Virus record (IMG/VR): IMGVR_UViG_3300009374_000001
Coordinates: 11,248 to 75,247 of that record
DNA length: 64,000 nucleotides
From: a virus
Direction: 5' to 3' (one strand)
A model generated the notes under the pieces. That model was not told where the DNA came from, searched no databases, and worked only from the letters and a program-made list of their open reading frames with translations. Every line of letters begins with the position of its first letter. The first letter of the stretch is position 1. This document shows, piece by piece, positions 15,001-48,548 of the stretch. Position numbers and translations under genes: made by a program.

Positions 15001-15460
15001 TAAAACAACGCTCAATAACGCATATTTTAATGACGGAAATAGAGCAATGAAGTCACAATTTGTTGAAAACGATCAATATCTACTAGGCGGCAGAAGCTGC
15101 GGGTGTTATCTTTTTGTCAAATTAAACAACAAAGAAAGTTTAAATATTGGAGGTGAAACTCAATTCTCATATAAAAATATAGCAATGGGCTCAGAAAATG
15201 CAATAAGATTTCCTATAGTATTTCAATACAGAATGACAGATTATTCTGGAGCGAATGATGGTGGCTCTGGCTTTATAGACGGAGATCCAGAAAATTCAGG
15301 CTTTTTACAATACAACAAAACAATAGGTTTTGATATTAAAGAAAAAGATAATGATATTACAAGCTTTGATTTGAAATTTAATGTAACGTATAAAGAACTA
15401 GGATTTGGGAGTACGAAATTTAGCCCACAGGACTTAGGTAACACCGGCGGTGAACAATAA
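12011..15460 (+). CDS. Large putative virion structural protein
   Basis: 1149 aa; coiled-coil plus FnIII-like segment (VEVRIKSVSEAGYP...SEWSN). Confidence 0.5.
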   Translation: MANNTINSDGDIITENPVTDIPTNSLASKVAQYVRLNTNAIDTYSKISEAVYSDKDNVTLTILKDDHSRVNINIPTFGWMVKELERLNLNFENLSSFSGQEVAVQLADGTFQKVIKSELLKEANDISGLEVPSKFNTKSNWFFEDFLNPQLYIALDFSDKIDIATEDVKVKRYILDLSESVIQEHFDNNFKGSSSINHDLFNSFLTDNNISYELDEDIVKMPPRTVNYEGNFSVISILKDANDNKNIYQLNKLSYTDLKSGVSDGLMINTGDTLKLNNTNTRYTITAIDKATKTIKVNLMDGRDILKVGANVLSIYKGYESDLSTNINIGFDENLVIFVKGINPISKIESKHWSNGIGFSSNELTIIDSAGKHMSLADYYDEYVVDFGRFIHSYQLDNVPPSAFGVTPNAPELDSRDFRVTSINDHLTGSDAFKNVQDLQSTKEEAESKVKAFDTELKAQRDLMSNKEYSTDAEYQADRTVYRSLVNDRETESTLFASVVRDIKSTINDTNLVNVSPKYRVRGFWEIPQAQTHKSTGDQKVIGFILNYRYLTKSGDSSNTETFDFGSEDSKKRGTFSDWIEMKSPVLIRALNASGKYEWVSSSVENGDLININQLDIPINYGETVEVRIKSVSEAGYPSNSMMSEWSNSIRINFPDSLNKLTPLGSIIKENLQDLSKIKMWEELQGLGVFSHVESSYKSGGKEYLHDANSISSGFFTPEQSPIALYDKLNELSNMISQLQTELSKTKGEMSVKVIAPDGTIIPVKINGTTNIFAGFYKNDVEGMAIKKGAIISKEYEVVIENIQAGPVELASLLPGSVNTEIYSSGDFFNNGNEVSSVVDNNLYFMNNGRYDYVPVNYMSELDQLQPYQGRQTNGQSVYVRLKSIDGAHNNYSDIDLDTNSVPANANRNNYEYSADSIPSTEVGGSTAFIWKYKYFNMHPELIDTSNVNDYANSLYVHKDHPIVADYHPAAFEYSAEVTTALSDINTNGKIVHNKYFKTTLNNAYFNDGNRAMKSQFVENDQYLLGGRSCGCYLFVKLNNKESLNIGGETQFSYKNIAMGSENAIRFPIVFQYRMTDYSGANDGGSGFIDGDPENSGFLQYNKTIGFDIKEKDNDITSFDLKFNVTYKELGFGSTKFSPQDLGNTGGEQ

Positions 15461-31181: not shown

Positions 31182-31517
31182 ATGAAAAACATAAAATCAT
31201 TTCAAAGTTTTAGTGACTTTCGCAAGGAAGCTGTTATTAAACAAGTAACTGAAGAAAAATCTGCACTACAACAAGAATATGCAGATTTCTTTAAAGACCT
31301 TCTGAAAAAGTATGACGTAGGCTCTCCTGCTGAATTATCTGATGAAGATAAGTCAAAATTCTTTGATGAAGTTTCTACTGGCTGGGATAAAGGCGAAGGT
31401 AAGAATGCTAAAGGTGAAGAATCAGTTGAAGATGTTGAAGAATCAGTTGAAGAATCAGTTGAAGATGCTGAAGAATCACTTGAAGAAGAATTAGATATTG
31501 AAATAACTGAAGAGTAA
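31182..31517 (+). CDS. Acidic prohead-core-like protein with CTS-like start
   Basis: MKNIKSFQSFSDF; ESVE(D/E) tandem repeats; ends EELDIEITEE. Confidence 0.6.
   Translation: MKNIKSFQSFSDFRKEAVIKQVTEEKSALQQEYADFFKDLLKKYDVGSPAELSDEDKSKFFDEVSTGWDKGEGKNAKGEESVEDVEESVEESVEDAEESLEEELDIEITEE
31415..31490 (+). repeat. Short in-frame tandem repeat (gaagaatcagttgaa)
   Basis: About four imperfect copies encoding EESVE. Confidence 0.7.
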
Positions 31518-31521
31518 TATA

Positions 31522-32811
31522 ATGAGGCTTCATTCATTTAAAGATTTTGTAAATGAATCTATGTCTAATTTATTAATTGAAGGTGGATCATTTGGCCATC
31601 TTCAGCACCCATTTGAAGATTTAACATTATCATTTACAGAGATAAAAGAACTTATTGAACTTTCTTTAGATATTGGATTTAGAAGGGAGAACATGGTTTC
31701 TGAGAAAACAGATGGCATTCAACTTTCTATTACATGGAAGAATGATGAGATAAGATTTGCAAAACAGGTTCACACAAAGAAGAATCAGGCAGAGAAAGCT
31801 TGGTTTCTTTCTGATGTTAAAGAGCAATGGAAAGCTGTAGCTGATGTGATGTATTTAGCAGGCTCGGATTTAAGTGCTGCTCTTTCTGCATTACCTAAGA
31901 AATTACTATTAGAAGTATTTGGTGAAGGCAGGAGATTTCTTTCATTAGAAGTTATTCATCCGAAGTCATCCAACACAGTTTATTATGGAAGCCCTTTATT
32001 AGTATTTCATGGCTTAATAGAATATGATGATAATGGTAAACAAGCCTCTGAGATGGATTCTAAGATTACTAAGATGCTTGAGAAAGAACTTGTTAAAGTT
32101 AATGCAAATAAACAATCATCGTTTTCTTTACAAGCTCCTAATTTTATTACACTAGTTAAGTCTGACAAGTTTCCAAAGATAGCAAATACGTTAAAGAGTA
32201 ACGTGAATAAAATTATAAAAGAAGCTGGGCTTAAAGACAGCGATACTATAGGTGATTTGCTATATTATTCGTTCGGTGAAAAGATTAAGTCTTGGGCAAA
32301 TTCATTTAATTATGAAATATCTATAGATGAAATTAATCTACTTTCGCAAAGATTTGCTGAACAAAAAGGTTCATACTTTACAGTTAGAGACATGAAGAAA
32401 ATTGAAAATGAAAAGTTTCAAGAGTGGGTGATTGGCTATTCAGCAAAAGCTGGCGGATGGAAGGCAGATTGGAAAGATTTTGTTCAGCCAATAGAAACTG
32501 TCTTTCTTAAGGTAGGTACAGAAGTAATGCAGCAAATGAGTTCTTATTTAGCAACTGATTTAGATGGAAGTAGCGAAGTAATGAGAAAACAATTAGAGGA
32601 TGCAATTAATGTTATAAACGCGTCTGATAATGCTACAGCTATTAAAAAAGTTGAAAGTGAAATGAAAAGAATTGAAAACGCGGGTGGCTTAAACAAATTA
32701 GTTGCAAGTGAAGGTATAGTTTTTAACTTTAAGGGAAAGCTTTATAAGTTTACTGGTCTTTTTGCTCCAATACATCAAATTGTTTCAATCATAAAATTTG
32801 GAAAGTTATAA
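31522..32811 (+). CDS. ATP-dependent ligase-fold nucleotidyltransferase (RNA-ligase-like) with CTS-like leader
   Basis: Motif I EKTDG, III LSLEVI, IIIa LVFHG, IV EGIVF, V YKF; leader MRLHSFKDFVNE. Confidence 0.65.
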   Translation: MRLHSFKDFVNESMSNLLIEGGSFGHLQHPFEDLTLSFTEIKELIELSLDIGFRRENMVSEKTDGIQLSITWKNDEIRFAKQVHTKKNQAEKAWFLSDVKEQWKAVADVMYLAGSDLSAALSALPKKLLLEVFGEGRRFLSLEVIHPKSSNTVYYGSPLLVFHGLIEYDDNGKQASEMDSKITKMLEKELVKVNANKQSSFSLQAPNFITLVKSDKFPKIANTLKSNVNKIIKEAGLKDSDTIGDLLYYSFGEKIKSWANSFNYEISIDEINLLSQRFAEQKGSYFTVRDMKKIENEKFQEWVIGYSAKAGGWKADWKDFVQPIETVFLKVGTEVMQQMSSYLATDLDGSSEVMRKQLEDAINVINASDNATAIKKVESEMKRIENAGGLNKLVASEGIVFNFKGKLYKFTGLFAPIHQIVSIIKFGKL

Positions 32812-33207
32812 ATGGGTATTATTAAAACGTTTGAGAACTTTATTAATGAAAGAATAGATTATCTTGAAGTTGCAAGTTCTCTTATTAAGCACTATGGCTT
32901 TAATACTAAAGTAAAGTTTGTTAAAAATTTAAAAAATAAAGCTGAATATGATTGGGATAGTGACACAATAAGATTAAGAACTTCATATAAAACAGAGAAA
33001 GATTTTCTTATTACTGTTTTACATGAAATTAATCATGTCAGGGGTGTATATGAAATGGGTGTTAAGAAATATAAAGATGAATATAAGCATGCAGGTGACA
33101 TTGCTTTAGCTAATAACGGAGATTTTTATAAAGATAACAGCTTTGAAATAAAGGCTGAAGATTGGGCACAAAGAGAAGTGAAAAAATGGATAAATAAAAT
33201 AAAATAA
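32812..33207 (+). CDS. HExxH zinc metallopeptidase-like protein with CTS-like leader
   Basis: TVLHEINH...FEIKAE; leader MGIIKTFENFINE. Confidence 0.65.
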   Translation: MGIIKTFENFINERIDYLEVASSLIKHYGFNTKVKFVKNLKNKAEYDWDSDTIRLRTSYKTEKDFLITVLHEINHVRGVYEMGVKKYKDEYKHAGDIALANNGDFYKDNSFEIKAEDWAQREVKKWINKIK

Positions 33208-33211
33208 TAAG

Positions 33212-33481
33212 ATGAAACAATCAGAATTAAGAAAACTAATTAGATTAACAATTAAAGAGCATATGAATGAAGATTCTTCTGGATCATTTCGGTCTAAGAA
33301 GCAAGTAGAACGGTTGACAAAGGGCAAATCTATTCGAGAAACATTTGTAAACCCATCGGTTGAATATAACGTTACTAACGATGGCGGTATTGTAATTTTT
33401 GGTAAAAGAGAAAAAGTTCATTTTACAAAGCAAGACGTTGAAGCTTTAGTAAAACAACTTAAAAGAAAAGGGATTGCTTAA
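33212..33481 (+). CDS. Small hypothetical protein with helical leader
   Basis: MKQSELRKLIRLTIKEHMNE. Confidence 0.6.
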   Translation: MKQSELRKLIRLTIKEHMNEDSSGSFRSKKQVERLTKGKSIRETFVNPSVEYNVTNDGGIVIFGKREKVHFTKQDVEALVKQLKRKGIA

Positions 33482-34068
33482 TGATTTTAGAGTTTAAACA
33501 ATTCGTAGAGTCTATCCAGTCTGAACATACCGGAGAGAAGGTAATTATATTCCCTGGGAGATTTCAGCCATTTCATAATGGGCATCTTAAAGCATTTGAA
33601 AAAGCTTATAAAATGTTCAAGTTAAGAGTTATACCTATACAAATAGTTAGTAAGAATAAGAACTCTCCAATTAAAGACAAAAAGCTCTTACAAGATATGG
33701 GTAATGCATTAGCAAAAGAGAATAAGAAGTTTATTGCAGATATACTGGTAAAGCCTGACAATGTTATGGGAAATATACCGCAAATGATTAAATGGCTTAG
33801 AAGCATTGGTTATAATCCAATGGGCATGGGAACTGGTGAAGATAGATATAAAGGCTATAAAGGCCAAATTGATTATCTTTTATCAGATAAGTCAGATGTG
33901 CCTACAGAAGAATTTGAATTAAAGGTAGTAGATGATAGAACAAGTGGTGCAAGTGGAACCGCAGTAAGACATGCATTTCAAGATGATGACGCAGATGCAC
34001 TTAAAGCGATGATTCCAGAGGTACTATTCTTTAAATTTTATAATAAAATAAAAAAAGCAATACAATGA
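33481..34068 (+). CDS. HIGH-family (cytidylyl/adenylyl-transferase-like) nucleotidyltransferase
   Basis: IFPGRFQPFHNGH, GEDR and SGTAVR; leader MILEFKQFVE. Confidence 0.85.
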   Translation: MILEFKQFVESIQSEHTGEKVIIFPGRFQPFHNGHLKAFEKAYKMFKLRVIPIQIVSKNKNSPIKDKKLLQDMGNALAKENKKFIADILVKPDNVMGNIPQMIKWLRSIGYNPMGMGTGEDRYKGYKGQIDYLLSDKSDVPTEEFELKVVDDRTSGASGTAVRHAFQDDDADALKAMIPEVLFFKFYNKIKKAIQ

Positions 34069-35072
34069 AGATAACAGAACAGAAATTGAGAAAACTTATA
34101 CAAGAAAACATTAAGACCCTTACTGAAAAACTTAAAAGATCATCTAGTGAATATGATAAATTTGAACAATGGCTAATCACTCTTGATCAAATGACAGTTG
34201 GTCATATACTTGACACGTTTGGGACAAAGTTACCAGACGGAGCAGATTTTGATACACCAGGCTATTTCCAAGATGAAGAACTTGACTACGACGATGCTTA
34301 CGATTTCTTTAGGAGTAACATGGGTGCATCTTGGGTTCAAGATATGGAAAAGTTTTATAGCAAAAATAAATCTAAATGCGATAAATACACAGAAAGATAT
34401 ACAAAGCAACTTAAAATCTTTAACGAAAATCATTTAAATGAAAAAGACGTATGGTCTATTAAAGGCTTAGACTCTTCAGATCAACAGGATGTTAATTTAA
34501 TGAAGCGCGCATTTGAACTTGCAAAAGTTAAAATTATAAAGATAGAAAAATATAACGATAGAGCTTACTTTATTACTTTAATTGCAAAAGATGGCAAAGC
34601 CATTATTGATACAGAGATTGATACTTTAAGTAATGTCTTTTATATGAATGATAATAGAGGCAGAAATAAAATCGGCACACTGCATAGAACAAGTGAAGTT
34701 GTTAAGGGTATTAAAGCTCTTGCAAAACTTCCAGGATTTGGACAAACAAGCTTAGTTAAAGTTAAAGAGTCTTTGGACGAAACATATAAGCTTCGCAAAA
34801 TTATTAGAAAAGAACTTCAAACTTTGAATGAAGCTAAGATGAGCAAGAAAGAATATCAAGAAGCAGCAAAAGAATTTGTTAATCAATGGGAAGATGATTT
34901 TAAACAAAGAATCAAAGATGACGGCGGATTTGATTATGAAGAAATGACATATGACACTGCTCAAGCTAATAACTTATGGAACGATGGACCTAAGATGGAC
35001 GCAGATTGGTTATATGACTATATAGAAAAAGAATTAGAAAAGCGACAGTGGTATAAAAAATACACAAAATAA
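34065..35072 (+). CDS. Multi-module hypothetical protein with N-terminal and internal helical leaders
   Basis: MKITEQKLRKLIQENIKTLTE; internal HLNE; internal YKLRKIIRKELQTLNE. Confidence 0.6.
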   Translation: MKITEQKLRKLIQENIKTLTEKLKRSSSEYDKFEQWLITLDQMTVGHILDTFGTKLPDGADFDTPGYFQDEELDYDDAYDFFRSNMGASWVQDMEKFYSKNKSKCDKYTERYTKQLKIFNENHLNEKDVWSIKGLDSSDQQDVNLMKRAFELAKVKIIKIEKYNDRAYFITLIAKDGKAIIDTEIDTLSNVFYMNDNRGRNKIGTLHRTSEVVKGIKALAKLPGFGQTSLVKVKESLDETYKLRKIIRKELQTLNEAKMSKKEYQEAAKEFVNQWEDDFKQRIKDDGGFDYEEMTYDTAQANNLWNDGPKMDADWLYDYIEKELEKRQWYKKYTK

Positions 35073-35082
35073 AAATAATACA

Positions 35083-35310
35083 GTGAAAGAGCAAGAATTA
35101 AGAAAACTTATTAGAAAAGAGCTTAACGAACGTATTTCTGGTTATGATGAATTTGATGTAGCAGTTAAAATTGATTCTGCTATGGAAAAGCTTGACAAAA
35201 ATATGGGAGTTGAAGTATTTGCAAAGGGTATTGCTAATATGTTTAATGACGTATATGGGAAAGAATATGCAAAAGATTTTTATGAAAATATTAACAAAAA
35301 ATATCAATGA
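35083..35310 (+). CDS. Small hypothetical protein with helical leader
   Basis: GTG start, MKEQELRKLIRKELNE. Confidence 0.6.
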   Translation: MKEQELRKLIRKELNERISGYDEFDVAVKIDSAMEKLDKNMGVEVFAKGIANMFNDVYGKEYAKDFYENINKKYQ

Positions 35311-36188
35311 TTAAAACTTTTAAAGAGTTCTTGAAGCTTTATGAAAGCGGTAATGCTATTGATGACGTAAGACCTATTTTAGGTAGAGAGATACCTGAAA
35401 CCTTAGAGCATGTAGAAAGGGATCTTTTAAATGCAGTAGGTTTAGATGGTTTTGATATAGATGCAGCAGTTATAGGTTCAGCTGGAAAGAAAGGCGATGA
35501 TATAGAATCAGGAGATATTGATATTGCGGTAAGTATTGATAAACTTGCAGGTGAAAACTCAACTTCTATCAATGAAGTATTAAAGTTTTTAAATATGACT
35601 TTAAAAGCTGCAGGTTATGATACTGCAGTTAATTATGGATTCAAACAAGTTTCAGTGCCATTTCCTATTAAAGGAGATAAAGCCAATGGATATTGTCAAG
35701 TTGACTTAATGCTTTCGGATAGCTTAGAATGGTCAAAATTTATGTATCATAGTCCAGATTTTACCAAGACAGAGTCAAGATATAAAGGTGCATACAGAAA
35801 CTTATTAATGATGGCAATTGCAACAGAGTCTAAAAAAGAAGCCACTAAGAAACTAGACACTGGAGAAACCGTTGAATATGAGCAGTTAGTCATTAGATTA
35901 AATACAGGTCTTGTTAAAGTTAGAAAGTCTTTACAGGGTAAACGTGGCTTGGTTAAAACACCTAAACTTTTAAAAGATTTTGATAGAGTTGTAAGCAATG
36001 TTCCAGATGAAGTAGCTGAAGCTTTATTTGGTGAAGGCGTTAAAGCTAAAGATATAATGACATTTGAAAAATGCTGGGATCTTTTTAATTCAAAAACATT
36101 TCCATATAAAAATAAAGAAGATATTATTATACAAAAATTTGAAATATATTTAAGTAAATCAAAGTTACCATTCCCTGAGGAACTATAA
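35307..36188 (+). CDS. Pol-beta-superfamily nucleotidyltransferase with CTS-like leader
   Basis: IGSAGKK...SGDIDIAV and third Asp in QVDLM; leader MIKTFKEFLKLYE. Confidence 0.75.
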   Translation: MIKTFKEFLKLYESGNAIDDVRPILGREIPETLEHVERDLLNAVGLDGFDIDAAVIGSAGKKGDDIESGDIDIAVSIDKLAGENSTSINEVLKFLNMTLKAAGYDTAVNYGFKQVSVPFPIKGDKANGYCQVDLMLSDSLEWSKFMYHSPDFTKTESRYKGAYRNLLMMAIATESKKEATKKLDTGETVEYEQLVIRLNTGLVKVRKSLQGKRGLVKTPKLLKDFDRVVSNVPDEVAEALFGEGVKAKDIMTFEKCWDLFNSKTFPYKNKEDIIIQKFEIYLSKSKLPFPEEL

Positions 36189-37090
36189 TGAAAATTGAAT
36201 CATATTCAAATTATACAACTCTACAAGAGGCTAAGCTTTATGGCTTTACTATTAAACAACTGTTAAACAGTACCTTAAAATTTAAAGGTAAGACTCTAAT
36301 TTATTTTGATACTGAAACACTAGGGCTTAAGCCTCATGTAGATTATATTCAGCTTACGCAAGTTGCAGCAATTGCGTATGATGGCTCAACTATGAAAGAA
36401 CTTGATTCGTTTAACACTAAGGCTAAATTAGGAGACCCCGCAAAGCATTTATTAAAACCTGATTCTGATGAAAGAAAAGGATGGGAAGAAAGACAAAAGG
36501 CAAGAGGTAAAAGTAAAGGGTTAAGCAATCCTGATGAACTCTTAAAAATGACAAGATACGGCGATGAGGGTGTTGATTTTATAGAAGAGAAAAAATCAAT
36601 AGAAGATTTTATTTCATTTATATCTAAGTTTAAAGATCCTATTTTAATTGCGCACAATGCACCCTTTGATATGAAATTTATGCATGTAAGAGCTAAATTA
36701 TTTGATTTAAAGTTCCCTAAAGCTGAAGTATTAGATACATTAAAATTGTCAAGACTTTATTTTGTTCCTCTTTTACAAGCTGCTGAGAATAGCAAAGAGT
36801 TAGAAAGTATTTTAACAGCTTTATCTAATAAGTTAAAAACAGGAGAACGTGGAAACAAAGTTTCATCGACGCTTGGAAATTTAGGAAAGGCGTTAGGCGT
36901 AAGTGTTGATTCATGGCATGACGCAAAAGCTGATGTTGAGATGTTAATGCAAATTGTTGAAAGAATGAAAGAATTCTTTACCCAATACATTGATATAGAT
37001 ATTAGTAAGGAGCATCAGCATGCTGCAAAACTCGATGCTCTTTCTAAAAAGCCTTGGTGGTGGTCTAAGAAAAAGAAATACAGGATATAA
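36188..37090 (+). CDS. DEDDh 3'-5' exonuclease (DnaQ-like) with CTS-like leader
   Basis: FDTETLGL, AHNAPFD and WHDAKADV; leader MKIESYSNYTTLQE. Confidence 0.85.
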   Translation: MKIESYSNYTTLQEAKLYGFTIKQLLNSTLKFKGKTLIYFDTETLGLKPHVDYIQLTQVAAIAYDGSTMKELDSFNTKAKLGDPAKHLLKPDSDERKGWEERQKARGKSKGLSNPDELLKMTRYGDEGVDFIEEKKSIEDFISFISKFKDPILIAHNAPFDMKFMHVRAKLFDLKFPKAEVLDTLKLSRLYFVPLLQAAENSKELESILTALSNKLKTGERGNKVSSTLGNLGKALGVSVDSWHDAKADVEMLMQIVERMKEFFTQYIDIDISKEHQHAAKLDALSKKPWWWSKKKKYRI

Positions 37091-37497
37091 TGAAAATTAA
37101 ATCATATCCAAATTATATTACAGAAAATCCAGACAAGATCTATGTTGGTAAGGTAAATGAGTTTGATTATTTAAAATCAGAGCTTGATAATGCTAAGAAA
37201 GTTTTTAAAGAATTACAGAAGATGTACCCAGATATTCCAAAGTTTCCATTAGTCTTTAAAGATTTAAAGGGAAGAGGGAGTGGGTTTTTAACTACGACTA
37301 GATTAAGAGGCGGCAAGTTTATTTTTATAGATAAAATGACTATCGATAATACAGGTTTAACTAGTAACCCAGCGGACTATGCAGTGTGTCATGAATTTGC
37401 TCATGCAATTCTTGCACATACAAAGCAATCGCTTGCTCATAGTAAAGCACACGACAAGCTTACATATAAACTTGCAAAAAAATTTAATTTAGTATGA
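37090..37497 (+). CDS. SprT-like HExxH metallopeptidase with CTS-like leader
   Basis: VCHEFAHA...AHSKAH; leader MKIKSYPNYITE. Confidence 0.65.
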   Translation: MKIKSYPNYITENPDKIYVGKVNEFDYLKSELDNAKKVFKELQKMYPDIPKFPLVFKDLKGRGSGFLTTTRLRGGKFIFIDKMTIDNTGLTSNPADYAVCHEFAHAILAHTKQSLAHSKAHDKLTYKLAKKFNLV

Positions 37498-38558
37498 AAA
37501 TTAAATCATATACAAACTTCATTAATGAAGGTGGCTGGTCAAGTGCAAAGACACAATCTACTGTATTAACCCCACATGTTTTAAAGCTTGCACATGAAAC
37601 ATTACAAAGTATTTTTAAAGAGTTTAATGCCTGGCTTGATAAAGAAGGAATGCCTCCGATGAAACCAATACGGGCAGTTGGCTCAGGCAGTTATTGGGAA
37701 GATGATTTAGTTAATCAACCAGATAAATTATATGGTGATATTGATTACTTATTTGAATATCCGATTTTAGAGTTTGATCCAAATCCTACAAATAATAGAA
37801 AAAATGAATTAGATACAATTAAGCTTTATAATGAAATGCTTTTAGATTGGATAAAGGCGTTTAAGCCAAATTCTGTTGATTATGAAGAGTCTGTTAAGAT
37901 ATCAAGCCCAACAAGTATTAAGCTTTTAATAATTCCAAAAGATGACATGTTTATACAAGCAGACATTTTAATTACTAGTGGCATCTATAAAGATTGGGCG
38001 ATAGGTAGATATACACCAGTAAAAGACATAAAAGGTTTTGTTATTGGCTATTTGTATAAAGCAATTGGCTTGACTTTAACCATGAGCTTTCTTGATAGAG
38101 GAGTAAGAGCAAAGTTTATTGATGGTAACTTAGTTAGTTTTAGAAAGAGAAAAAATGTCGAAGAGATGATTATTAGTTTAGACTTTGGCAACTTCTTATA
38201 CGATATTGCTGAATGGGCAATGGAATTTGATGGTAAGAATAAAAAGAAGATGAAAGTACATAAGCTCCTAAAGCAGCAAAAAGGTTTAACAAGAGATAAT
38301 GTTACACTTGAAAAATTCTGTGTAGGCATTAAGGGTCTTGCATATACATTAGAAATGAACGACTTATTACACATATTCTCTCTTTCAAGTGCAGATGACA
38401 TGATAAACAAGACAGAAGAAAATTATATAAATTCAATATCTGATGTAAGGCATAGCAGTAAGTTTAAGAAAGCTGAAACAGCTCATGCTAGGGCTGCTAT
38501 GGAGAAGATATTTAAATTCATTGATTATGGAATAGAAACAGTAAGTAGAAGTTTATGA
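37494..38558 (+). CDS. Pol-beta-superfamily nucleotidyltransferase with CTS-like leader
   Basis: VGSGS...YGDIDYL and IQADIL; leader MKIKSYTNFINE. Confidence 0.7.
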   Translation: MKIKSYTNFINEGGWSSAKTQSTVLTPHVLKLAHETLQSIFKEFNAWLDKEGMPPMKPIRAVGSGSYWEDDLVNQPDKLYGDIDYLFEYPILEFDPNPTNNRKNELDTIKLYNEMLLDWIKAFKPNSVDYEESVKISSPTSIKLLIIPKDDMFIQADILITSGIYKDWAIGRYTPVKDIKGFVIGYLYKAIGLTLTMSFLDRGVRAKFIDGNLVSFRKRKNVEEMIISLDFGNFLYDIAEWAMEFDGKNKKKMKVHKLLKQQKGLTRDNVTLEKFCVGIKGLAYTLEMNDLLHIFSLSSADDMINKTEENYINSISDVRHSSKFKKAETAHARAAMEKIFKFIDYGIETVSRSL

Positions 38559-40792
38559 AATCACTATATAAAGAAAAGAACTTAGACAAATTATTTAAAC
38601 AGAGTCTTTTAGTAACAGAAAAGATTGACGCGCCTAGAATTAAGGTGAAGAAAGTTAACGATGGTTTTGAAATATTTAAGGCAAATTCAAATACGGCATT
38701 AAACGTAGTTGATAGAACTTTAACATCATTATACGAAAATGCGTATGAGCATTTTTCAAGTTTTTGGAAAGATATGATTGAAGAAGTCCCAGATAATTAC
38801 ATATTTGAAATGTATTATATGACTAATACAAAGCCAGTAAGAACTGAATATGACAGGCTACCGAAGAATAATCTAATACTTATATCAATTCAAGTAATGG
38901 AGAATGATAAAGTTAAAAAGATTATTAGAGAGCCTAAGATACTAAATGAATGGGCAGATAAATTTGAAATAGAACACCCGCCTATTTTATTTAACGATAA
39001 ATTAAGTGAGAATCAGAAATTTAAGTTAAAAGAGTTGCTATCACAGAGCAGTAAAGATGTTTTTGGGCTATTCAGTAATAGTTCATTTACAGCACATATT
39101 ATGTCAGTGCTAGACCCTAGAATTCATGAGATGACACTTAACAAAGATACACATAAGAATACTAATGGATTTATTTTTACATTTCATGCAGGAAAGGTTG
39201 TTTCTAATCTGCTACTACAGAGCTCTCTTAAAGAAAGTAATGATTCATATACGCCTAATGATTCATACGACTTAGTATTACTAGACTTAGTAGAATATAT
39301 GATAAAAGATGAATCATGGGAGCATATTTTGCTTAAAGAACATGGTGAAGATTTAAGATATTTAGAGTGTATCTCAAATATTTTTAATATGTATATGGAA
39401 AAGAATATGCATAGACTTTTAGGAATGAGTTTAGAGAAAATGGATTTTGCAAATAAGCCAGAATTTAAACTTAATAAAAAAAATATTAAGAACAAAAGAA
39501 CTAACGAATTATTAGACATTCATGTTTTAAGTGAAATCTTTCAGGCAATGTTGGGTAGTTTCAGAAAGCATAGAAGCAAAGAAACTACACTAATTTCAAA
39601 TGCTGCTATTACAGAAATAAATTTATTGATTGATAAGATTAATGAAAAGATAGGAAAAGAACCAGATATTATAGAGGACAGCGATGAAGTTAAAGATTTT
39701 GAAAGTTTTATGATTAGTGAAGGTAGAGATGAAATAATTAATAATATAAATCTTTCATTGAAAGACTTGGAGATTGATCAATTAAATTATATCAATACAT
39801 ACATTAATAAACAAGGATTAAGTTCAAAAATTAAAGAGATTTTTTCAGGCTTAGGCTTAACGACTGGTATAGATAAAGTAGTTAATGGCTTTTTATCTTT
39901 ATTAGTTGGCGCAGGCGGATCATTAGAAGATAATATAGAAATAGTTGATAAATTATCAATAGACGGGACGTTATTCAATGATTTAGATATTGGGAAGGTG
40001 TCAAATTTTAAGAATAATTTAATTACTAATAGCAAATTTCACACAAAGCTTATCAAGACTTTTATTGACTGGGAGCCTAAAAAAATAGATAAATCTGCAA
40101 TTGGAAAAGGAGAAGCATTTTTAATTGCTTTATTGGGCGGACGAAAAGCAGAACATGGAGATATTAAAATAGGTGATAATAATTATGAAGTTAAAGGTAG
40201 AGGGGCTCGATTAAAAGCGCAAAGGGGCTATGGTACTTTTATAAATAATGAAAAAACTTTCATTAAAGATTTTTCTAGTGTTGTTAACTATGGGTTTACA
40301 CCAAAAGAGAAAATAAATAATAAATATTTAGATAAAAAGAAAAATATACTACCCTTTAAAGAAATATCTAAAAACATTAACAATATTAATTTTACTGATA
40401 AAGGATTATCAATGTATAGAGAGTTTATATTAAATGCAGATAACCCACTTAAAGCTGTAGAAGTATTACAAGAGTTGTTTAGAAAGATTTTTGTAAATGT
40501 TAGTAATTTTAATGAATTATCATTTTTAGATACTTTAAATTCATCCGCTTCAGAAAAAAAGATGCTTATGGATTTTAAATTAGAGTACAGCAGATTTATA
40601 TTTGATTATTATAAGAAACAAGAAAAATGGGATTATTTAATGTTTATAAATTTAGATAACGCTAATTATGTCTGCATTGAAAAATCTAATGAATTTGTGA
40701 ATTTAATAAAAAATGGAAAAATAAAAATAAATGTAAGCCATAGCTGGACCCAAACACAAAATAATGTTCCACAATATACATTAGTGGCTTAA
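38555..40792 (+). CDS. Fusion: degenerate ligase-like N-domain plus C-terminal PD-(D/E)xK-like nuclease domain
   Basis: VTEKIDA (KxDG-like) near the start; internal VKDFESFMISE; IGKGE...GDIKIGDNNYEVKG. Confidence 0.5.
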   Translation: MKSLYKEKNLDKLFKQSLLVTEKIDAPRIKVKKVNDGFEIFKANSNTALNVVDRTLTSLYENAYEHFSSFWKDMIEEVPDNYIFEMYYMTNTKPVRTEYDRLPKNNLILISIQVMENDKVKKIIREPKILNEWADKFEIEHPPILFNDKLSENQKFKLKELLSQSSKDVFGLFSNSSFTAHIMSVLDPRIHEMTLNKDTHKNTNGFIFTFHAGKVVSNLLLQSSLKESNDSYTPNDSYDLVLLDLVEYMIKDESWEHILLKEHGEDLRYLECISNIFNMYMEKNMHRLLGMSLEKMDFANKPEFKLNKKNIKNKRTNELLDIHVLSEIFQAMLGSFRKHRSKETTLISNAAITEINLLIDKINEKIGKEPDIIEDSDEVKDFESFMISEGRDEIINNINLSLKDLEIDQLNYINTYINKQGLSSKIKEIFSGLGLTTGIDKVVNGFLSLLVGAGGSLEDNIEIVDKLSIDGTLFNDLDIGKVSNFKNNLITNSKFHTKLIKTFIDWEPKKIDKSAIGKGEAFLIALLGGRKAEHGDIKIGDNNYEVKGRGARLKAQRGYGTFINNEKTFIKDFSSVVNYGFTPKEKINNKYLDKKKNILPFKEISKNINNINFTDKGLSMYREFILNADNPLKAVEVLQELFRKIFVNVSNFNELSFLDTLNSSASEKKMLMDFKLEYSRFIFDYYKKQEKWDYLMFINLDNANYVCIEKSNEFVNLIKNGKIKINVSHSWTQTQNNVPQYTLVA

Positions 40793-40800
40793 ATATATAA
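40792..40800 (+). promoter_or_regulatory. Candidate late promoter
   Basis: AATATATAA before ORF 40819. Confidence 0.4.
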
Positions 40801-40818
40801 AAAAACAAATATAAAATT

Positions 40819-41166
40819 ATGACTAAAATTTATGAAAACTTTGAAGACTTTGTTTTTAATGAACTTAATAAAGAAATTGATATTGAACTAGTTGATGAAA
40901 GAGTTGAGGTTAAGCGTAAATACACAGATAAATATCCATCTAAATCCATTAACGCAAAAGCAAGAGTTAGAAGTGCAGTGCTAAGTGCAATGAAAGATGG
41001 GATAGTTACTGAAGAGGAACTTGATAATATTATAGCTGCAGCACAGGGCAGTAAAGCATGGAAGCGTAAAAATACTAAGCTTTTTAAAGTTACAGAAGAT
41101 GGCATTAAACTTTCAAAATTTGGTTCACGAATCTATAGAAGAACTCTAGTTACAGAGGAAAAATAA
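40819..41166 (+). CDS. Small basic hypothetical protein with CTS-like leader
   Basis: MTKIYENFEDFVFNE...LVDE, then a basic domain. Confidence 0.55.
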   Translation: MTKIYENFEDFVFNELNKEIDIELVDERVEVKRKYTDKYPSKSINAKARVRSAVLSAMKDGIVTEEELDNIIAAAQGSKAWKRKNTKLFKVTEDGIKLSKFGSRIYRRTLVTEEK

Positions 41167-41588
41167 TGCCATCTAAGTCAATCGCACAGCAGCGTCTGTT
41201 TGGGATGGCTCTTGCATATAGAAGAGGAGAGCTTAAAAAGTTTGAAATATCTCAAGAAGTTATTGATCTTGCAAATTCAATGTCTGAAAAAGACTTAGAA
41301 GATTTCGCTGAAACTAAGCATAAAGATTTACCATACAAAGTTAAAGAAAATATAGAACTTAATGATATTTCAGGTATGGGAGATGTAGCACTACCTAATA
41401 TGCAAACGCATAATATAGGAAGTGGGGATATGCCGTTTGGGCATCATTATTGCAAATGTTTAAATTGCGGCGAAGTTGCAATTAAAGATGAAGAGGTTTC
41501 ATGCGAATTAATGACTTGTCCTGTATGTCAAAATTCTATGGTAAATGAAAGAAAGTATATAAAAAAATATATTGACTATGTTAGATAA
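41166..41588 (+). CDS. DUF3008-like protein with C-terminal zinc ribbon
   Basis: MPSKSIAQQRLFGMALA...MSEKDLEDFAETKHKDLP; CLNC...CPVC. Confidence 0.6.
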   Translation: MPSKSIAQQRLFGMALAYRRGELKKFEISQEVIDLANSMSEKDLEDFAETKHKDLPYKVKENIELNDISGMGDVALPNMQTHNIGSGDMPFGHHYCKCLNCGEVAIKDEEVSCELMTCPVCQNSMVNERKYIKKYIDYVR

Positions 41589-41970
41589 ATTATTAACATT
41601 TTTTACAGGTAATACAATAAAAGAAATAGGAGATGCTGTAGATAATCTTGTTACGAGCGACGAAGAACGTATGAAGCTAAAAACTGAAGTAAAGCAGATT
41701 TTAGTAAATGCAGAAGAAGCTGCGCAAGAACAAGTTTCTGCCAGATGGGAAAGTGATATGAAGCATGGTAGTTTTTTAAGTAAGAATGTTAGACCATTAA
41801 GCTTAATATTTTTAACTTTAATGTTTGTTGTAATATCTATATTTGATGGTAACATTGGGGAATTTCAAATAAATGATTCATATATCCCAGTTTATCAAAC
41901 TCTATTAATGACAGTATATGGTGCATATTTTGCAGGCAGAAGTTTTGAAAAGATTAAAAAATCAGAGTAG
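41572..41970 (+). CDS. Holin (3TM/GTA-holin-like)
   Basis: RWESDM..SFLSKNVRPL, two hydrophobic helices, AYFAGRSFEK. Confidence 0.7.
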   Translation: MTMLDKLLTFFTGNTIKEIGDAVDNLVTSDEERMKLKTEVKQILVNAEEAAQEQVSARWESDMKHGSFLSKNVRPLSLIFLTLMFVVISIFDGNIGEFQINDSYIPVYQTLLMTVYGAYFAGRSFEKIKKSE

Positions 41971-45006: not shown

Positions 45007-46410
45007 ATGCTATTAAGTATTGAGCAAGATGATAATAGATTAACTGTTTCGTATTATGATAAAGAAGGTGAAACAGCATATAAGATATATGATTTAAATC
45101 AATTTAAAAATTGGTATGTTTGTCATGATGGTGATAGATATAAATCTGATATTTACACGAATTGGGATGGGAGACCTGTTAAACAAGCAAATGCAAAGTT
45201 TTTAAATAAACATAGTATTATTGATTTTTTGCAAACTCTGCCTCAAGAAGATAAAGACTTAATTTTTGCACACAATTATCCAAAGATGTATTTTATGGAT
45301 ATTGAAGTTGAAGTAACTGATGGCTTCCCAGAAGCAAAAAAAGCAGAAAATAGAATTATTACAGTTTCTATAGCAACGCCTGATAAAGAAATTATAATCT
45401 TAGGGTTAAAAGATCTTTCTCCTAATGAAATCACAAATATCGAAATTGATATACATAATCATTTTCTTAAAGTTACAGATGATACTTGGAAATTAAAGTA
45501 TATTAAGTTTAATTCTGAGTATGATATGGTATATACGCTATTGACTAAATATATAAGTAAATTGCCCATTATATCTGGGTGGAATTTCATAAGCTACGAT
45601 TGGACATATATTATTAATCGCTGCTATAGATTACAAATAAACCCAGATATTGCAAGCCCTTCATTAAAACTAGAAGGTGCTGATAACACGCCAATGCATG
45701 TTGGTATTGTAGATTATATGAGACTCTATCATCAGTATGATAGGACAGTAAAAGTTAAAGAATCATCAACTTTAGCGCATGTTTCGAATATAGTACTTGG
45801 TGTATCTAAAGTTAAAAACAATATGAATCTTAAATTACTATATGAGCAGAAATATGCTCAATATGTTTTTTACAATGCCGTTGATTCTATATTAGTTCAT
45901 ATGCTTGATCAAAAGCTCAAGCTAGCAGATGTGCTATATACAGTTGCAAGTATGACTAAATCAACTTTATACAGAGCAAGTTCTCCTGTTACTATAACAG
46001 AAAGTCTTTTGCTACCGCTATTTAAGCAAAATAACAAGGTATTAGCAAGAGATAATGCTGAAAAACAGAAAAAAATAAAGTACACTGGCGCGTACGTTAA
46101 AGCACCGAAGGTCGGGTTTCATAAGGGCGTTGCTTGTTTTGACTTTGCAAGTCTATATCCATCTATGATGAGACAATTTAACATATCTCCAGAAAATTTA
46201 AAAAATAAGGTGCCTCCAGTAGCTGTTGAAAAAACTAAAAATGAAAGTAATATAGTAACTATTAATGGCTGCGTCTTTGATAAAGAAGACTCATATCTTA
46301 GAATGATTTTAACAGCTCTATATGCTAAGCGAAAAGAGTATAAGGGAAAAGCGTTTAACGCAAAGTTAAAAATGGAAAAAATAAAGAAACAATTAAAAGA
46401 AATTAAATAA
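45007..46410 (+). CDS. Family B DNA polymerase, N-terminal subunit (exonuclease, motif A, first finger helix)
   Basis: MDIEV, GWNFISYD, YNAVD, YTGAYV and FDFASLYPS; ends after KRKEYK. Confidence 0.9.
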   Translation: MLLSIEQDDNRLTVSYYDKEGETAYKIYDLNQFKNWYVCHDGDRYKSDIYTNWDGRPVKQANAKFLNKHSIIDFLQTLPQEDKDLIFAHNYPKMYFMDIEVEVTDGFPEAKKAENRIITVSIATPDKEIIILGLKDLSPNEITNIEIDIHNHFLKVTDDTWKLKYIKFNSEYDMVYTLLTKYISKLPIISGWNFISYDWTYIINRCYRLQINPDIASPSLKLEGADNTPMHVGIVDYMRLYHQYDRTVKVKESSTLAHVSNIVLGVSKVKNNMNLKLLYEQKYAQYVFYNAVDSILVHMLDQKLKLADVLYTVASMTKSTLYRASSPVTITESLLLPLFKQNNKVLARDNAEKQKKIKYTGAYVKAPKVGFHKGVACFDFASLYPSMMRQFNISPENLKNKVPPVAVEKTKNESNIVTINGCVFDKEDSYLRMILTALYAKRKEYKGKAFNAKLKMEKIKKQLKEIK

Positions 46411-46618: not shown

Positions 46619-47386
46619 ATGTTAAATTTAAAAATAGACAAAATAAATGTAGCTCAACTTTCAGAATTCATCAGTTCTGTTATAAGCATCTCAGAGTTTG
46701 TGTATATGAGAATCATTGGTGATGAGCTAATATCAACTTGCTATTTGCCACAAAAAGATGCAGTAAAACAGCATAGAGCAAATCTGAATGATGTATTTAC
46801 TTTCAGTAGTGACTTTAGTAAAATAGAATCTAAAGTTGTTAAAGTGGCGTTTTTTGATGGCATAAAAGTATTAAAAGCTTTATCGCATTTTTCTGGAAAA
46901 GAAATTTCTGGTATATTAACATTAAGCGAAGAAGATGAATCATATACAGGTTCATCATTGATGCTGGTAAGTGATAATTTAACTATAGAACTTGCGTGCG
47001 CAGAACCCACGCTAGGTTTTACAGATATACCAGAAGATAAGCTAAATGGGATATTATCCGCAAATAATTATAAGTTTAATTTTACATTAGAACATGAAAT
47101 GATTAATAAACTTAAATCATTATTTAAGCTCGAATCAGATAAAGATACATTTAAAGTTCATTTAAAAGACAATAAAGTAAACATTATTGGCAATATGTAT
47201 AATATTGCTGCTGCTGATGTAGATAGTTTGAATACGACCAGTGAATATGAAACTACCCTTTACAAAAAGTATATTTCATTGTTAGGAAAATATAACTATA
47301 AAACGTCAGTATGTGAGAATAAACTAGTGTTTGAATCGCCAGATAAAAATACAACATTAACTGTAGCAGTATGTGAAGAAAATTAA
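46619..47386 (+). CDS. Sliding clamp, gp45-like (tentative)
   Basis: 255 aa with a two-domain alternating alpha/beta pattern; lies between the polymerase halves. Confidence 0.55.
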   Translation: MLNLKIDKINVAQLSEFISSVISISEFVYMRIIGDELISTCYLPQKDAVKQHRANLNDVFTFSSDFSKIESKVVKVAFFDGIKVLKALSHFSGKEISGILTLSEEDESYTGSSLMLVSDNLTIELACAEPTLGFTDIPEDKLNGILSANNYKFNFTLEHEMINKLKSLFKLESDKDTFKVHLKDNKVNIIGNMYNIAAADVDSLNTTSEYETTLYKKYISLLGKYNYKTSVCENKLVFESPDKNTTLTVAVCEEN

Positions 47387-47402: not shown

Positions 47403-48548
47403 ATGAACTTAAATGACTTATCAAAAGAAGATCTAAAGCACCAATACGATATAGCAGAATCAGAATCTTTAAAATTTAGAAATTATGAACAAGCTGTAAA
47501 GTTAATTTTAAACTCAATGTATGGAGCTTTTGGCAATAACTATTTTCATTTTTTTAATATTGACTTAGCAGAAGCAATTACACTACAGTGCCAAGATGCA
47601 ATATTGTATACTGAGGTTGCTATCAATAAATATTTTAATGATTTTTGGCATAAAGATAAGGAATTACATAAATTATTAGATATTGAAGTTACTGATTCAA
47701 TTAAGGACGCCGTAGTTATATATATTGATACAGATTCTTGTTATGTTTCATTTGAAGAAGTTTATCAAAATGCAAATTATGATGGTGATGTAACAGAATT
47801 CATTAAAGACATATATGAATATAGATTAAAAAACTATATTAAAAATGTACTTTATAAATATTCGGATAAATGGAACACTGATTCTTTTTTAAAGTTTGAA
47901 TTAGAAACTATTGCATATTCTGCAATTTGGCTATCAAAAAAGAAATATATTCAAAACATTGCATGGGAAGATCCTGGCATTGATCATAACAAGTTAGAAT
48001 TTATTAAAGCTACAGGTTTTGAAATTGTCCAATCATCAAGCCCTAGCTTTGTAAGAACTAAATTAAAAGAAGCTTTAATTTTAATGTTTAAAGATGATAA
48101 TCCAAATTTAAGTGAACTTGTTTCATTTCTTAAAGATGTTAAGAAAGAATTTAAGTTAGCAAATATTGAAGAAATTAGCTTTAGTAAACGAGTCAATAAC
48201 ATTGAAAAATACATTATAGATGATTATTCACATTTTGAAGTTGCAAAATCTTGCCCAATAAATGTAAGAGCAGCAGGGTATTATAATTATCTTTTAAACA
48301 ATTCAGAATATAAGAGTAAGTATCATAATATACCAAGTGGTGAAAAAGTTAGAATATATTTTACAGATGACAATTTATCTAACGTATTTGCATTTATGCC
48401 TGATGAGCATCCGTATGAATTTGCACCTAACGTTGACTATGATTTGCAATTTGAAAAGTCAATATTAGATCCGCTGAACAGAGTTATTAAAGCAGTAGGT
48501 TTAAAGACTCTTAATTCGAACTTAATTTATGCAAAAACACTTTTTTAA
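47403..48548 (+). CDS. Family B DNA polymerase, C-terminal subunit (motifs B and C, thumb)
   Basis: KLILNSMYG, YIDTDS, KKKY and GFEIVQSS. Confidence 0.9.
   Translation: MNLNDLSKEDLKHQYDIAESESLKFRNYEQAVKLILNSMYGAFGNNYFHFFNIDLAEAITLQCQDAILYTEVAINKYFNDFWHKDKELHKLLDIEVTDSIKDAVVIYIDTDSCYVSFEEVYQNANYDGDVTEFIKDIYEYRLKNYIKNVLYKYSDKWNTDSFLKFELETIAYSAIWLSKKKYIQNIAWEDPGIDHNKLEFIKATGFEIVQSSSPSFVRTKLKEALILMFKDDNPNLSELVSFLKDVKKEFKLANIEEISFSKRVNNIEKYIIDDYSHFEVAKSCPINVRAAGYYNYLLNNSEYKSKYHNIPSGEKVRIYFTDDNLSNVFAFMPDEHPYEFAPNVDYDLQFEKSILDPLNRVIKAVGLKTLNSNLIYAKTLF

Follow-up and report, generated by a model that had tools for sequence, protein, structure and literature searches.

The DNA analysed here (the window) is a stretch of 64,000 nucleotides, which corresponds to positions 11248-75247 of one viral contig with a length of 75.2 kb (IMG/VR record IMGVR_UViG_3300009374_000001). 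A tightly packed gene block was found in the window from 31182 to 41970, with intergenic gaps of -17 to +26 nt. A preliminary description had named six enzymes of nucleotidyl transfer and end processing in this block, namely two ligase-fold proteins (31522 and 38555, here LIG1 and LIG2), two Pol-beta-type nucleotidyltransferases or NTases (35307 and 37494, here POLX and NT2), an NTase of the HIGH superfamily (33481, here HIGH) and a DEDDh exonuclease (36188). All six genes were intact open reading frames (ORFs) on the + strand at these positions. Four of them, LIG1, HIGH, POLX and LIG2, are read here as a conserved end-repair module of giant T4-related uncultured phages, with RNA as the favoured substrate, with proteins that are probably addressed to the capsid, and with lineage-specific add-ons; we give this reading a probability of roughly 55%.

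The GC content of the window was about 31%, and all of its genes were located on the + strand. The gene set was that of a T4-related myovirus, with a baseplate wedge protein, primase, UvsW, class I ribonucleotide reductase (RNR), dUTPase, a split family-B DNA polymerase (PolB), UvsX, a DnaB-type helicase, a gp46/47-type nuclease, portal and prohead protease. The completeness of the 75-kb contig was about 22% according to CheckV, which leaves 78% of the genome unseen. Related contigs of 136-202 kb were rated 48-66% complete, so that these phages are giant, with genomes of roughly 300 kb. A megablast search with the region gave no DNA-level match among cultured phages, and no tRNA genes were found in the window.

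Enzymes of the block

Motif I of LIG1 was EKTDG (residues 61-65), and the C-terminus of the protein contained EGIVF...KGKLYK. The alignment of 26 stand-alone homologues contained invariant K62, D64, G65, E143, H163, E397, G398 and K409 residues. Motifs III, IIIa, IV (EG) and V (K) followed in the canonical order, as assigned by inspection and not by superposition. The AlphaFold2 (AF2) model of LIG1 had a predicted local distance difference test (pLDDT) score of 86.6, and its ten best structural matches in VIA consisted of ligases only, among which nine were named RNA ligases (Z 7.6-8.8, 185-215 residues aligned). The Z score was 8.8 for NgrRnl (188 residues aligned), 8.4 for Trl1-LIG, 8.3 for T4 Rnl1 and for REL1, 7.9 for T4 Rnl2 and 7.2-7.7 for archaeal Rnl3, whereas it ranged between 5.2 and 6.7 for DNA ligases and between 5.1 and 5.3 for capping enzymes. 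The Foldseek probability against RNA ligases was 0.93-0.99. The model contained a helical insertion of about 200 aa between motifs IIIa and IV and was devoid of an OB domain. The Pfam model RNA_ligase (PF09414) gave no match to LIG1 at E<=10, whilst 1498 cluster representatives of the LIG1 domain were obtained in an exhaustive search with HMMER. The model, its structural matches and the invariant motif residues agree with the ligase fold and the KxDG/EG/K motifs described earlier, and LIG1 is predicted to be a ligase-fold protein of RNA-ligase-like type. A role as the replicative DNA ligase was considered and rejected, since four of the five related large contigs encoded a genuine DNA ligase (ATP- or NAD-dependent) as a separate gene.

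In POLX, the G57, S58, D70, D72 and D133 residues were invariant among the homologues. A total of 254 homologues were found, at about 50% identity, with cluster representatives in phage metagenome contigs. The AF2 model (pLDDT 89.4) had Pol beta or Pol lambda as all of its 50 best Foldseek matches. The highest Z scores in VIA were 9.7 for the Pol X of Thermus thermophilus (Tth Pol X), 9.6 for Pol beta and 9.5 for the Pol X of African swine fever virus (ASFV; 162/176 residues aligned, root-mean-square deviation 3.3), and the alignments with Tth Pol X, Pol beta, ASFV Pol X, TdT and Pol lambda extended over 162-191 residues (Z 9.0-9.7). With TUTases, CD-NTases and CCA enzymes the alignment was confined to a palm of about 100 residues, the CD-NTases being at lower Z. 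The model consisted of palm and thumb only, with about 20 residues ahead of the palm, and neither the 8-kDa lyase domain nor the HhH fingers domain was found in it. ASFV Pol X is likewise without these two domains. Judged by the model, the nearest fold of POLX is that of the family-X polymerases, with three invariant aspartates.

NT2 contained invariant G63, S64, D82, D84 and D157 residues (GS...DID...QxD) among 15 homologues, and it matched the POLX family in hhalign with E 1.4e-5 and a probability of 80%; by this profile similarity NT2 is a distant paralogue of POLX. Its nearest named folds in the ESM Atlas were Pol X proteins of nucleocytoplasmic large DNA viruses (NCLDV), at template-modelling (TM) scores of 0.42-0.49, which is below 0.5. 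The Atlas neighbours also included NCLDV Pol X proteins fused to ATP- or NAD-dependent DNA ligases. The assignment of both proteins to the Pol-beta type is upheld by the invariant GS...DxD and third aspartate, together with the model of POLX and the profile match of NT2. The Pfam Pol X palm model (PF14792) gave no match to either at E<=10, in a search that was weak, as control genomes also gave only matches below the cut-off. The RlaP model (PF10127) gave no match in the contig at E<=10, and neither did the DUF6267 model.

HIGH matched PF01467 (CTP_transf_like) with 34.3 bits (cut-off 21; 3e-8) and TIGR00125 with 39.3 bits (cut-off 27.7). It contained FHNGH at residues 31-35, within GRFQPFHNGH, and SGTAVR at residues 158-163. 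With the generic family models above cut-off and both motifs present, its naming as a HIGH NTase was confirmed. The equivalog models of nicotinamide mononucleotide adenylyltransferase (NMNAT; NadM, NadR and NadD) and of phosphopantetheine adenylyltransferase (PPAT) gave at best 18-27 bits, where the cut-offs are 103-409, and none was reached; HIGH was weakly nearest to NadM-type NMNAT and PPAT. A complex prediction for LIG1 with HIGH had a score of 0.00, which is no answer and speaks neither for nor against binding. The exonuclease matched PF00929 (RNase_T) with 42.8 bits (cut-off 24; 1e-10) and was of the DnaQ/PolC-exo type. All three Exo motifs were present (DTET at 41-44, HNAPFD at 156-161 and H244-x4-D249), in agreement with its description as a DEDDh enzyme.

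In LIG2, the lysine of the motif-I TEK (K23) was invariant in 20 homologues, two of which contained EKIDGSRF. The first ~360 residues had homologues in 32 related loci by tblastn; a word-indexed search had returned LIG2 itself only. An Atlas structural neighbour matched at TM 0.82 over 235 residues, and 32% of the members of that neighbour's cluster have PF09414. The comparison of the LIG1 and LIG2 families by hhalign was non-significant (E 0.017, probability 2.7%), and the LIG1 family against LIG2 alone gave nothing. The conserved lysine and the Atlas neighbours suggest a ligase fold for LIG2. Of the degenerate second ligase described earlier, the motif-I lysine was confirmed, and the fold is suggested by Atlas neighbours only. 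The C-terminal half of LIG2 was found elsewhere in one locus (L019), at 28% identity. At residues ~520-560 it contained GKGE...GDIKIG...YEVKG, which by eye resembles the core of a PD-(D/E)xK nuclease; no family model matches this segment.

Pfam, PHROG and NCBIfam gave nothing useful for LIG1, POLX, NT2, LIG2 or the 335-aa protein at 34065, even at E<=10. Sequence and profile searches of the PDB with LIG1 and with three family alignments (A1, A2 and A4) returned noise only, and an all-against-all BLAST of the contig proteins found no paralogy of the enzymes to each other. The features of the block are given in Table 1.

Table 1. Genes of the block and positions of the ATATAATA sites, in coordinates of the window (loci refer to the 80 related viral loci described below)
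Position	Strand	Feature	Basis or occurrence
31182..31517	+	Small protein, 111 aa, CTS-like leader (CTS, capsid-targeting sequence), acidic tail; first gene of the block	phrog_28651
31522..32811	+	LIG1, predicted ATP-dependent RNA-ligase-like covalent nucleotidyltransferase, 429 aa, 13-residue leader	motifs, predicted fold
32812..33207	+	Mini-zincin 1, 131 aa, HExxH at residue 71, leader; add-on	MPTase-PolyVal 9e-4 (below cut-off)
33212..33481	+	Small protein, 89 aa, type B leader; add-on	0/80 loci
33481..34068	+	HIGH, HIGH-superfamily nucleotidyltransferase, NadM/NMNAT- or PPAT-like, leader	GRFQPFHNGH, SGTAVR
34065..35072	+	335-aa protein, type B leader and internal copy of that leader; add-on	0/80 loci
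35083..35310	+	Small protein, 75 aa, type B leader; add-on	leader; 0/80 loci
35307..36188	+	POLX, predicted minimal family-X-polymerase-like protein, 293 aa, leader followed by conserved E-S/G-G-N	motifs, predicted fold
36188..37090	+	DnaQ/PolC-exo-type DEDDh 3'-5' exonuclease, leader; add-on	RNase_T; 0/80 loci
37090..37497	+	Mini-zincin 2, 135 aa, HExxH at residue 101, leader; add-on	weak SprT/M78 similarity; 0/80 loci
37494..38558	+	NT2, second Pol X-like nucleotidyltransferase, 354 aa, leader followed by invariant EGG; add-on	1/80 loci
38555..40792	+	LIG2, ligase-like N-terminal ~360 aa and lineage-specific C-terminal ~350 aa, no leader	invariant motif-I K23
40819..41166	+	Small protein, 115 aa, leader; conserved and in synteny with the module	26/80 loci
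41166..41588	+	DUF3008 protein, no leader, syntenic neighbour at the downstream edge of the module	conserved in relatives
1069, 3238, 3253, 8803, 25137, 31152, 42002, 56802, 58262, 60218		ATATAATA sites	

The two mini-zincins may be packaged mini-metallopeptidases. The first of them was similar to a 1149-aa protein at 12011-15460 (phrog_29329, among tail and baseplate genes), over 128 residues with 27% identity (E 2.5e-4). A holin-like gene (41572-41970; phrog_3427, 2e-25) was located amid the replication genes directly after the module and overlapped the DUF3008 gene by 17 nt. Family-B DNA polymerase was encoded in two genes, at 45007-46410 and 47403-48548, with a 255-aa ORF (46619-47386) between them. 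A scan for sigma-70 promoters and terminators was uninformative, as its hits were below the shuffle expectation.

Conserved gene order, fusions and leaders

For the analysis of neighbourhoods, 80 viral loci encoding a POLX homologue were searched by tblastn with the proteins of the window. About 30 of these loci shared the order primase-UvsW-(31182-like)-LIG1-HIGH-POLX-LIG2-40819-like-DUF3008-(dUTPase)-PolB-RNR, where homologues of 31182 were present downstream of UvsW in 11 loci. Of the 80 loci, 33 contained LIG1, 39 contained HIGH and 32 contained LIG2. The exonuclease was found in none and NT2 in a single one, and both mini-zincins and the three type B-leader genes of the block were also found in none. 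As the exonuclease and NT2 are all but absent beside the module in relatives, the six enzymes are a conserved core of four genes plus add-ons, and not one conserved pathway. The clustering of LIG1, HIGH, POLX and LIG2 is beyond chance, as seen from synteny and from the fusions described below, and that of the exonuclease and NT2 is not. The cluster of end-processing enzymes proposed in the preliminary description, and its co-occurrence in related phages, thus hold for the four core genes only. Of the trim-extend-ligate pathway proposed there, the extend and ligate parts are upheld for the core by fixed order and fusions, whereas the trimming part is not supported, the exonuclease being absent from all 80 loci.

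Most (about 80%) of the top 150 cluster representatives of LIG1 were multidomain proteins, in which the LIG1 domain was C-terminal. Of eleven representatives scanned, eight contained an upstream cytidylyltransferase-like (HIGH) domain, two added a Zeta/AAA_33 P-loop kinase and one added a PolyA_pol head (CCA-adding type) with an RNA-binding domain. HIGH was fused with LIG1 in a protein of Microcystis phage Mel-JY01 and in numerous proteins from metagenomes, the same architecture was found in BFVD (TM 0.83-0.88), and a more distant version was present in cyanophage S-PM2. LIG2 was fused to HIGH in three related loci (L021, L024 and L031). The largest fusion was a 1636-aa ORF in locus L050 (2261-7168), containing HIGH, a PolyA_pol head with RNA-binding domain, DUF5661, an AAA_33/KTI12 kinase, an HD domain and POLX. 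In a 1498-aa ORF of locus L049 (59-4552), Pfam recognised the head, the RNA-binding domain and the HD domain, and tblastn added HIGH and Pol X-like segments. In both loci LIG2 was the next gene after the giant ORF, which is an apparent RNA-repair polyprotein. RNA healing and sealing classically involves a kinase, an HD phosphoesterase, a CCA-type NTase and a ligase, as established for T4 Pnkp/Rnl1, Trl1 and bacterial Pnkp/Hen1 (PMC7824862). From its repeated fusion to each of the three, HIGH would work together with LIG1, LIG2 and POLX.

Of the 13 proteins encoded between 31182 and 41166, nine began with a leader of 10-13 residues, for example MKIKSYTNFINE, MIKTFKEFLKLYE and MRLHSFKDFVNE. Its residue pattern was aromatic-x-x-aromatic-aliphatic-x-Glu, which was kept though the codons varied. 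With this pattern, written after inspection of the data, ten of 74 N-termini were matched where 0.69 was expected from internal positions, and nine of the ten were located within 31182-41166. The leader was conserved in homologues of HIGH, POLX, LIG1, NT2 and 40819 and was often identical (MKxxKLFEQFINE) across families. In 45 close loci it was found on 238 of 1069 ORFs (22%), and never on UvsW, primase, PolB, DUF3008 or LIG2. The capsid-targeting sequence of T4 is MKTYQEFIAE, with an (L/I)-x-E cleavage site (PMC8442874), and it is removed by the prohead protease (PMC8442874; PMC3012670). A T4-type prohead protease gene was located at 60255. From these comparisons the leaders are taken to be real and family-specific. 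Reading the 'NEGG' of the leader as a double-glycine signal of the bacteriocin or GG-protease type was rejected by eye, as the register does not fit.

The adjacent and unrelated add-ons at 36188, 37090 and 37494 were nearly identical in DNA over their first ~27 nt (ATGAAAATTRAATCATAT...). This identity fits leader-mediated insertion of cassettes, and suggests that the leaders act as recombination cassettes in gene gain. In LIG1 and the Pol X-like proteins, the leader is followed by Glu-Gly-Gly, which runs into residues that were also conserved in LIG1 domains inside fusions, so that a part of the leader motif may be structural and not a cleavage site.

The element ATATAATA was present 30 nt upstream of 31182, the first gene of the block, and in all 10-37 nt upstream of ten gene starts, including those of baseplate genes, of the prohead protease and of the gene that precedes the portal gene. 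The dUTPase gene too has ATATAATA upstream, and the 22 copies against ~13 expected are weak evidence in an AT-rich genome. The element is a candidate late-promoter-like element.

A second leader type (type B, MKLTKxQLKxIIREE) was found on six unrelated small genes, at 8819, 25925, 33212, 34065, 35083 and 58288, one of which was located directly upstream of the portal gene. The internal type B copy in the 34065 protein (residues 239-260) matched residues 2-23 of the 25925 protein by BLAST.

Probable function of the module

In the proposed mechanism, POLX would restore one nucleotide or a few to a 3'-OH end, in the manner of RlaP on RNA or of ASFV Pol X in DNA gaps, and LIG1 would then seal the break between 3'-OH and 5'-phosphate through a lysyl-AMP on K62. 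HIGH may supply or regenerate an adenylylated cofactor or intermediate for LIG1, LIG2 and POLX, and of the three steps this one is the most uncertain. As substrate, RNA would be preferred, such as broken tRNA or other RNA cut by nucleases of the host defence. To this block the phage would have added the DnaQ-type 3' exonuclease, the second Pol X-like paralogue and the two mini-zincins. As no polynucleotide kinase, HD protein, CCA enzyme or tRNA gene was found in the fragment, the healing steps for breaks that leave a 2',3'-cyclic phosphate and a 5'-OH are not seen here.

The preference for RNA comes from the fusion partners, from RNA ligases ranking above DNA ligases, from the missing OB domain and from the separate DNA ligase in four of five relatives; RNA has roughly twice the odds of DNA. 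A repair module for DNA, with a mini Pol X for short gaps, ligase-like proteins for nicks in the phage DNA and the DnaQ-type exonuclease for proofreading or trimming of 3' ends, is an unlikely alternative that deserves to be taken seriously. ASFV Pol X and its ligase act as such a pair in base-excision repair. POLX aligned with the whole of ASFV Pol X and with the palm and thumb of Pol beta, Pol lambda and TdT, and RNA-specific NTases matched the palm only; the Pol X-DNA ligase fusions of NCLDV among the Atlas neighbours of NT2, the DnaQ/PolC-exo type of the exonuclease, the location of the module between UvsW and DNA polymerase B, and the lack of RNA end-healing enzymes in the 75-kb fragment point in the same direction. 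However, LIG1 scored higher with RNA ligases than with DNA ligases and was without an OB domain, a canonical DNA ligase is already present in the relatives, POLX was devoid of the 8-kDa and HhH DNA-binding domains, and the fusion partners were a CCA-type head with RNA-binding domain, a kinase of the polynucleotide kinase (PNK) type and an HD domain. A system for cofactors or signals is improbable. In such a system HIGH would be an NMNAT that rebuilds the NAD+ depleted by defence, and the Pol-beta-type NTases would make or decoy second messengers. Its GRFQPFHNGH motif is closest to those of NadM-type NMNATs, and the nearest annotated phage relatives of HIGH are of the NatV/NadM type. However, the NMNAT equivalog cut-offs were not reached, no NAMPT was found in the fragment with the NAPRTase model, HIGH was fused to ligase-like and Pol X-like domains and not to Nudix or NAMPT, and CD-NTases matched POLX at lower Z over the palm only, whereas family-X polymerases matched it over palm and thumb. 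The rebuilding or decoying of nucleotide signals, which had been suggested in the preliminary description, gained no support. It is more improbable still that the block is a chance neighbourhood of unrelated accessory genes without a common pathway. Beside the module there is indeed no conservation of the exonuclease, NT2, both zincins or the small proteins, but the fixed synteny of the four core genes in ~30 loci and their repeated fusions restrict this explanation to the add-ons.

As nine of the 13 block genes start with a leader similar to the T4 capsid-targeting sequence, the leader-bearing enzymes are probably loaded into the prohead, trimmed after the Glu of the leader and delivered with the DNA, with about even odds for such packaging. 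In cyanophage S-CREM2, gp154, annotated as 'cytidylyltransferase', was detected with three peptides by mass spectrometry in purified virions (PMC10665884). The gp154 gene is located directly after UvsW, and its protein is a HIGH NTase that starts with MKNFSSFLTE; its similarity to HIGH of the window was weak (pairwise E 0.001). Only slightly less than an even chance is given to the opposite explanation, that the leader is not capsid-targeting and that the enzymes, expressed in the ordinary way, do their work inside the infected cell. In that case the common N-terminus would be a result of cassette recombination, an element of translation or stability, or a target signal for another assembly. 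This would agree with the almost identical 5' DNA of the three adjacent add-ons, with the very large set of 238 of 1069 ORFs near the module, with the continuation of the post-leader E-G-G into residues conserved in fusion-internal LIG1 domains, and with the place of the module among replication genes. It agrees less well with a residue pattern that is retained while codons vary, with the match to the T4 sequence and its (L/I)-x-E cleavage site (PMC8442874), with the family-specific occurrence of the leader and its absence from replication proteins, and with a leader-bearing HIGH NTase in S-CREM2 virions (PMC10665884). The position of ATATAATA before the block as well as before portal-adjacent, protease and baseplate genes is a weak argument of the same kind.

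Several findings weigh against the reading of a conserved, RNA-directed and capsid-addressed end-repair module. The Pol X fold and the NCLDV fusions of Pol X with DNA ligase point to DNA, and so do the DnaQ-type exonuclease and the location among replication genes. The RNA_ligase, RlaP and Pol X palm models matched no protein of the module in targeted searches of its own contig, and the structural Z scores of 8.8-9.7 are modestly above the background quoted by the tool. The AAA_33 kinase, HD and PolyA_pol (CCA-type) families were not found in the 75-kb fragment, which is about 22% of the genome, and the phage may carry them elsewhere. Motifs III-V of LIG2 were not conserved in its 20 homologues, and the exonuclease and NT2 were nearly absent from the related loci. 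For the packaging part, the pattern was defined with the leaders in view, 22% of ORFs in close loci would be a very large cargo if all were packaged, and gp154 of S-CREM2 is a weak relative detected by three peptides.

A bolder form of the end-repair reading is possible but doubtful. According to it, capsids would be pre-loaded with a complete kit for the repair of breaks (Rnl-type ligase, HIGH, mini Pol X and LIG2), addressed by the leaders and released by the protease, so that repair would go on from injection. If this were true, the repair of RNA or DNA breaks inflicted by defence would start before phage gene expression, and the coupling of HIGH with ligase would mean a new ligation chemistry or a new supply of cofactor.

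Comparison with known systems

What is known of RNA repair in phages comes from T4 Pnkp/Rnl1 and from genome comparisons, as in the case of RlaP. The proposed working of the module is nearest to repair of the T4 Pnkp/Rnl1 type combined with a nucleotide-restoring NTase such as RlaP (PMC12776372). LIG1 resembled the T4 tRNA repair system (Pnkp with Rnl1; Rnl2) and fungal Trl1 (ligase-kinase-CPDase, the last being a cyclic phosphodiesterase) in its predicted fold and in the motif order I, III, IIIa, IV, V, and T4 Rnl1, T4 Rnl2 and Trl1-LIG were among its ten best structural matches. A further likeness is that the ligase domain in relatives was fused to a PNK-like kinase and a phosphoesterase. 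Unlike T4 Rnl and Trl1, LIG1 had no Pfam RNA_ligase match and its helical module of about 200 aa was inserted between motifs IIIa and IV and not appended. In contrast to T4 Pnkp/Rnl1, a kinase/phosphatase was not found in this 75-kb fragment. To our knowledge, an obligate HIGH NTase partner is absent from any characterised RNA repair system.

RlaP (PF10127) is an RNA-ligase-associated Pol-beta NTase that adds one or two nucleoside monophosphates to damaged RNA 3' ends (PMC12776372; PMC7824862). POLX is likewise an NTase of the Pol-beta superfamily, coupled to RNA-ligase-like genes in phages, and restoration of nucleotides before sealing is plausible for it. However, POLX had no PF10127 match and its predicted fold was nearest to family-X polymerases including the thumb, and it is a separate family. 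With ASFV Pol X (pO174L) it shared the minimal palm and thumb and the pairing with a ligase, and giant-virus fusions of Pol X with ligase were found in the Atlas, whereas the identity was 11-16%, the partner was RNA-ligase-like without OB domain and the fusion partners were RNA-processing domains. HIGH shared the HIGH and SxTxxR motifs, and weak matches, with NadM/NatV NMNATs (KVP40 NatV) and bacterial PPAT. It differed from NatV and PPAT in scoring below the equivalog cut-offs, in lacking both a NAMPT partner in the fragment and a fusion to Nudix or kinase, and in its fusion to ligase-like and Pol X-like domains.

The leaders were similar to those of the T4 internal proteins, being 10-13 residues long, present on unrelated proteins and ending in aliphatic-x-Glu, with a T4-type prohead protease in the genome and a cassette-like identity of 5' DNA. 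Unlike in T4, the leader was found here on conserved enzymes and on about one-fifth of the neighbouring ORFs, and packaging is suggested by the genes and by one distant virion proteome. If the leaders direct packaging, the enzymatic cargo of counter-defence could be read directly from phage genomes.

The LIG1 family, whose ligase domain is in most cases fused to a HIGH NTase, and the POLX family had no Pfam or PHROG assignment and are labelled 'cytidyltransferase-like' or 'hypothetical' in databases. The module consists of known superfamilies and uncharacterised families in a new combination of HIGH, ligase and Pol X, with a probable packaging tag; the survey of Burroughs & Aravind (2016) may already mention some of the families. 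POLX would be the first link of a Pol X-type enzyme to phage RNA or DNA repair, and the function of the HIGH-ligase pair, once shown, would add a component to the healing-and-sealing pathways.

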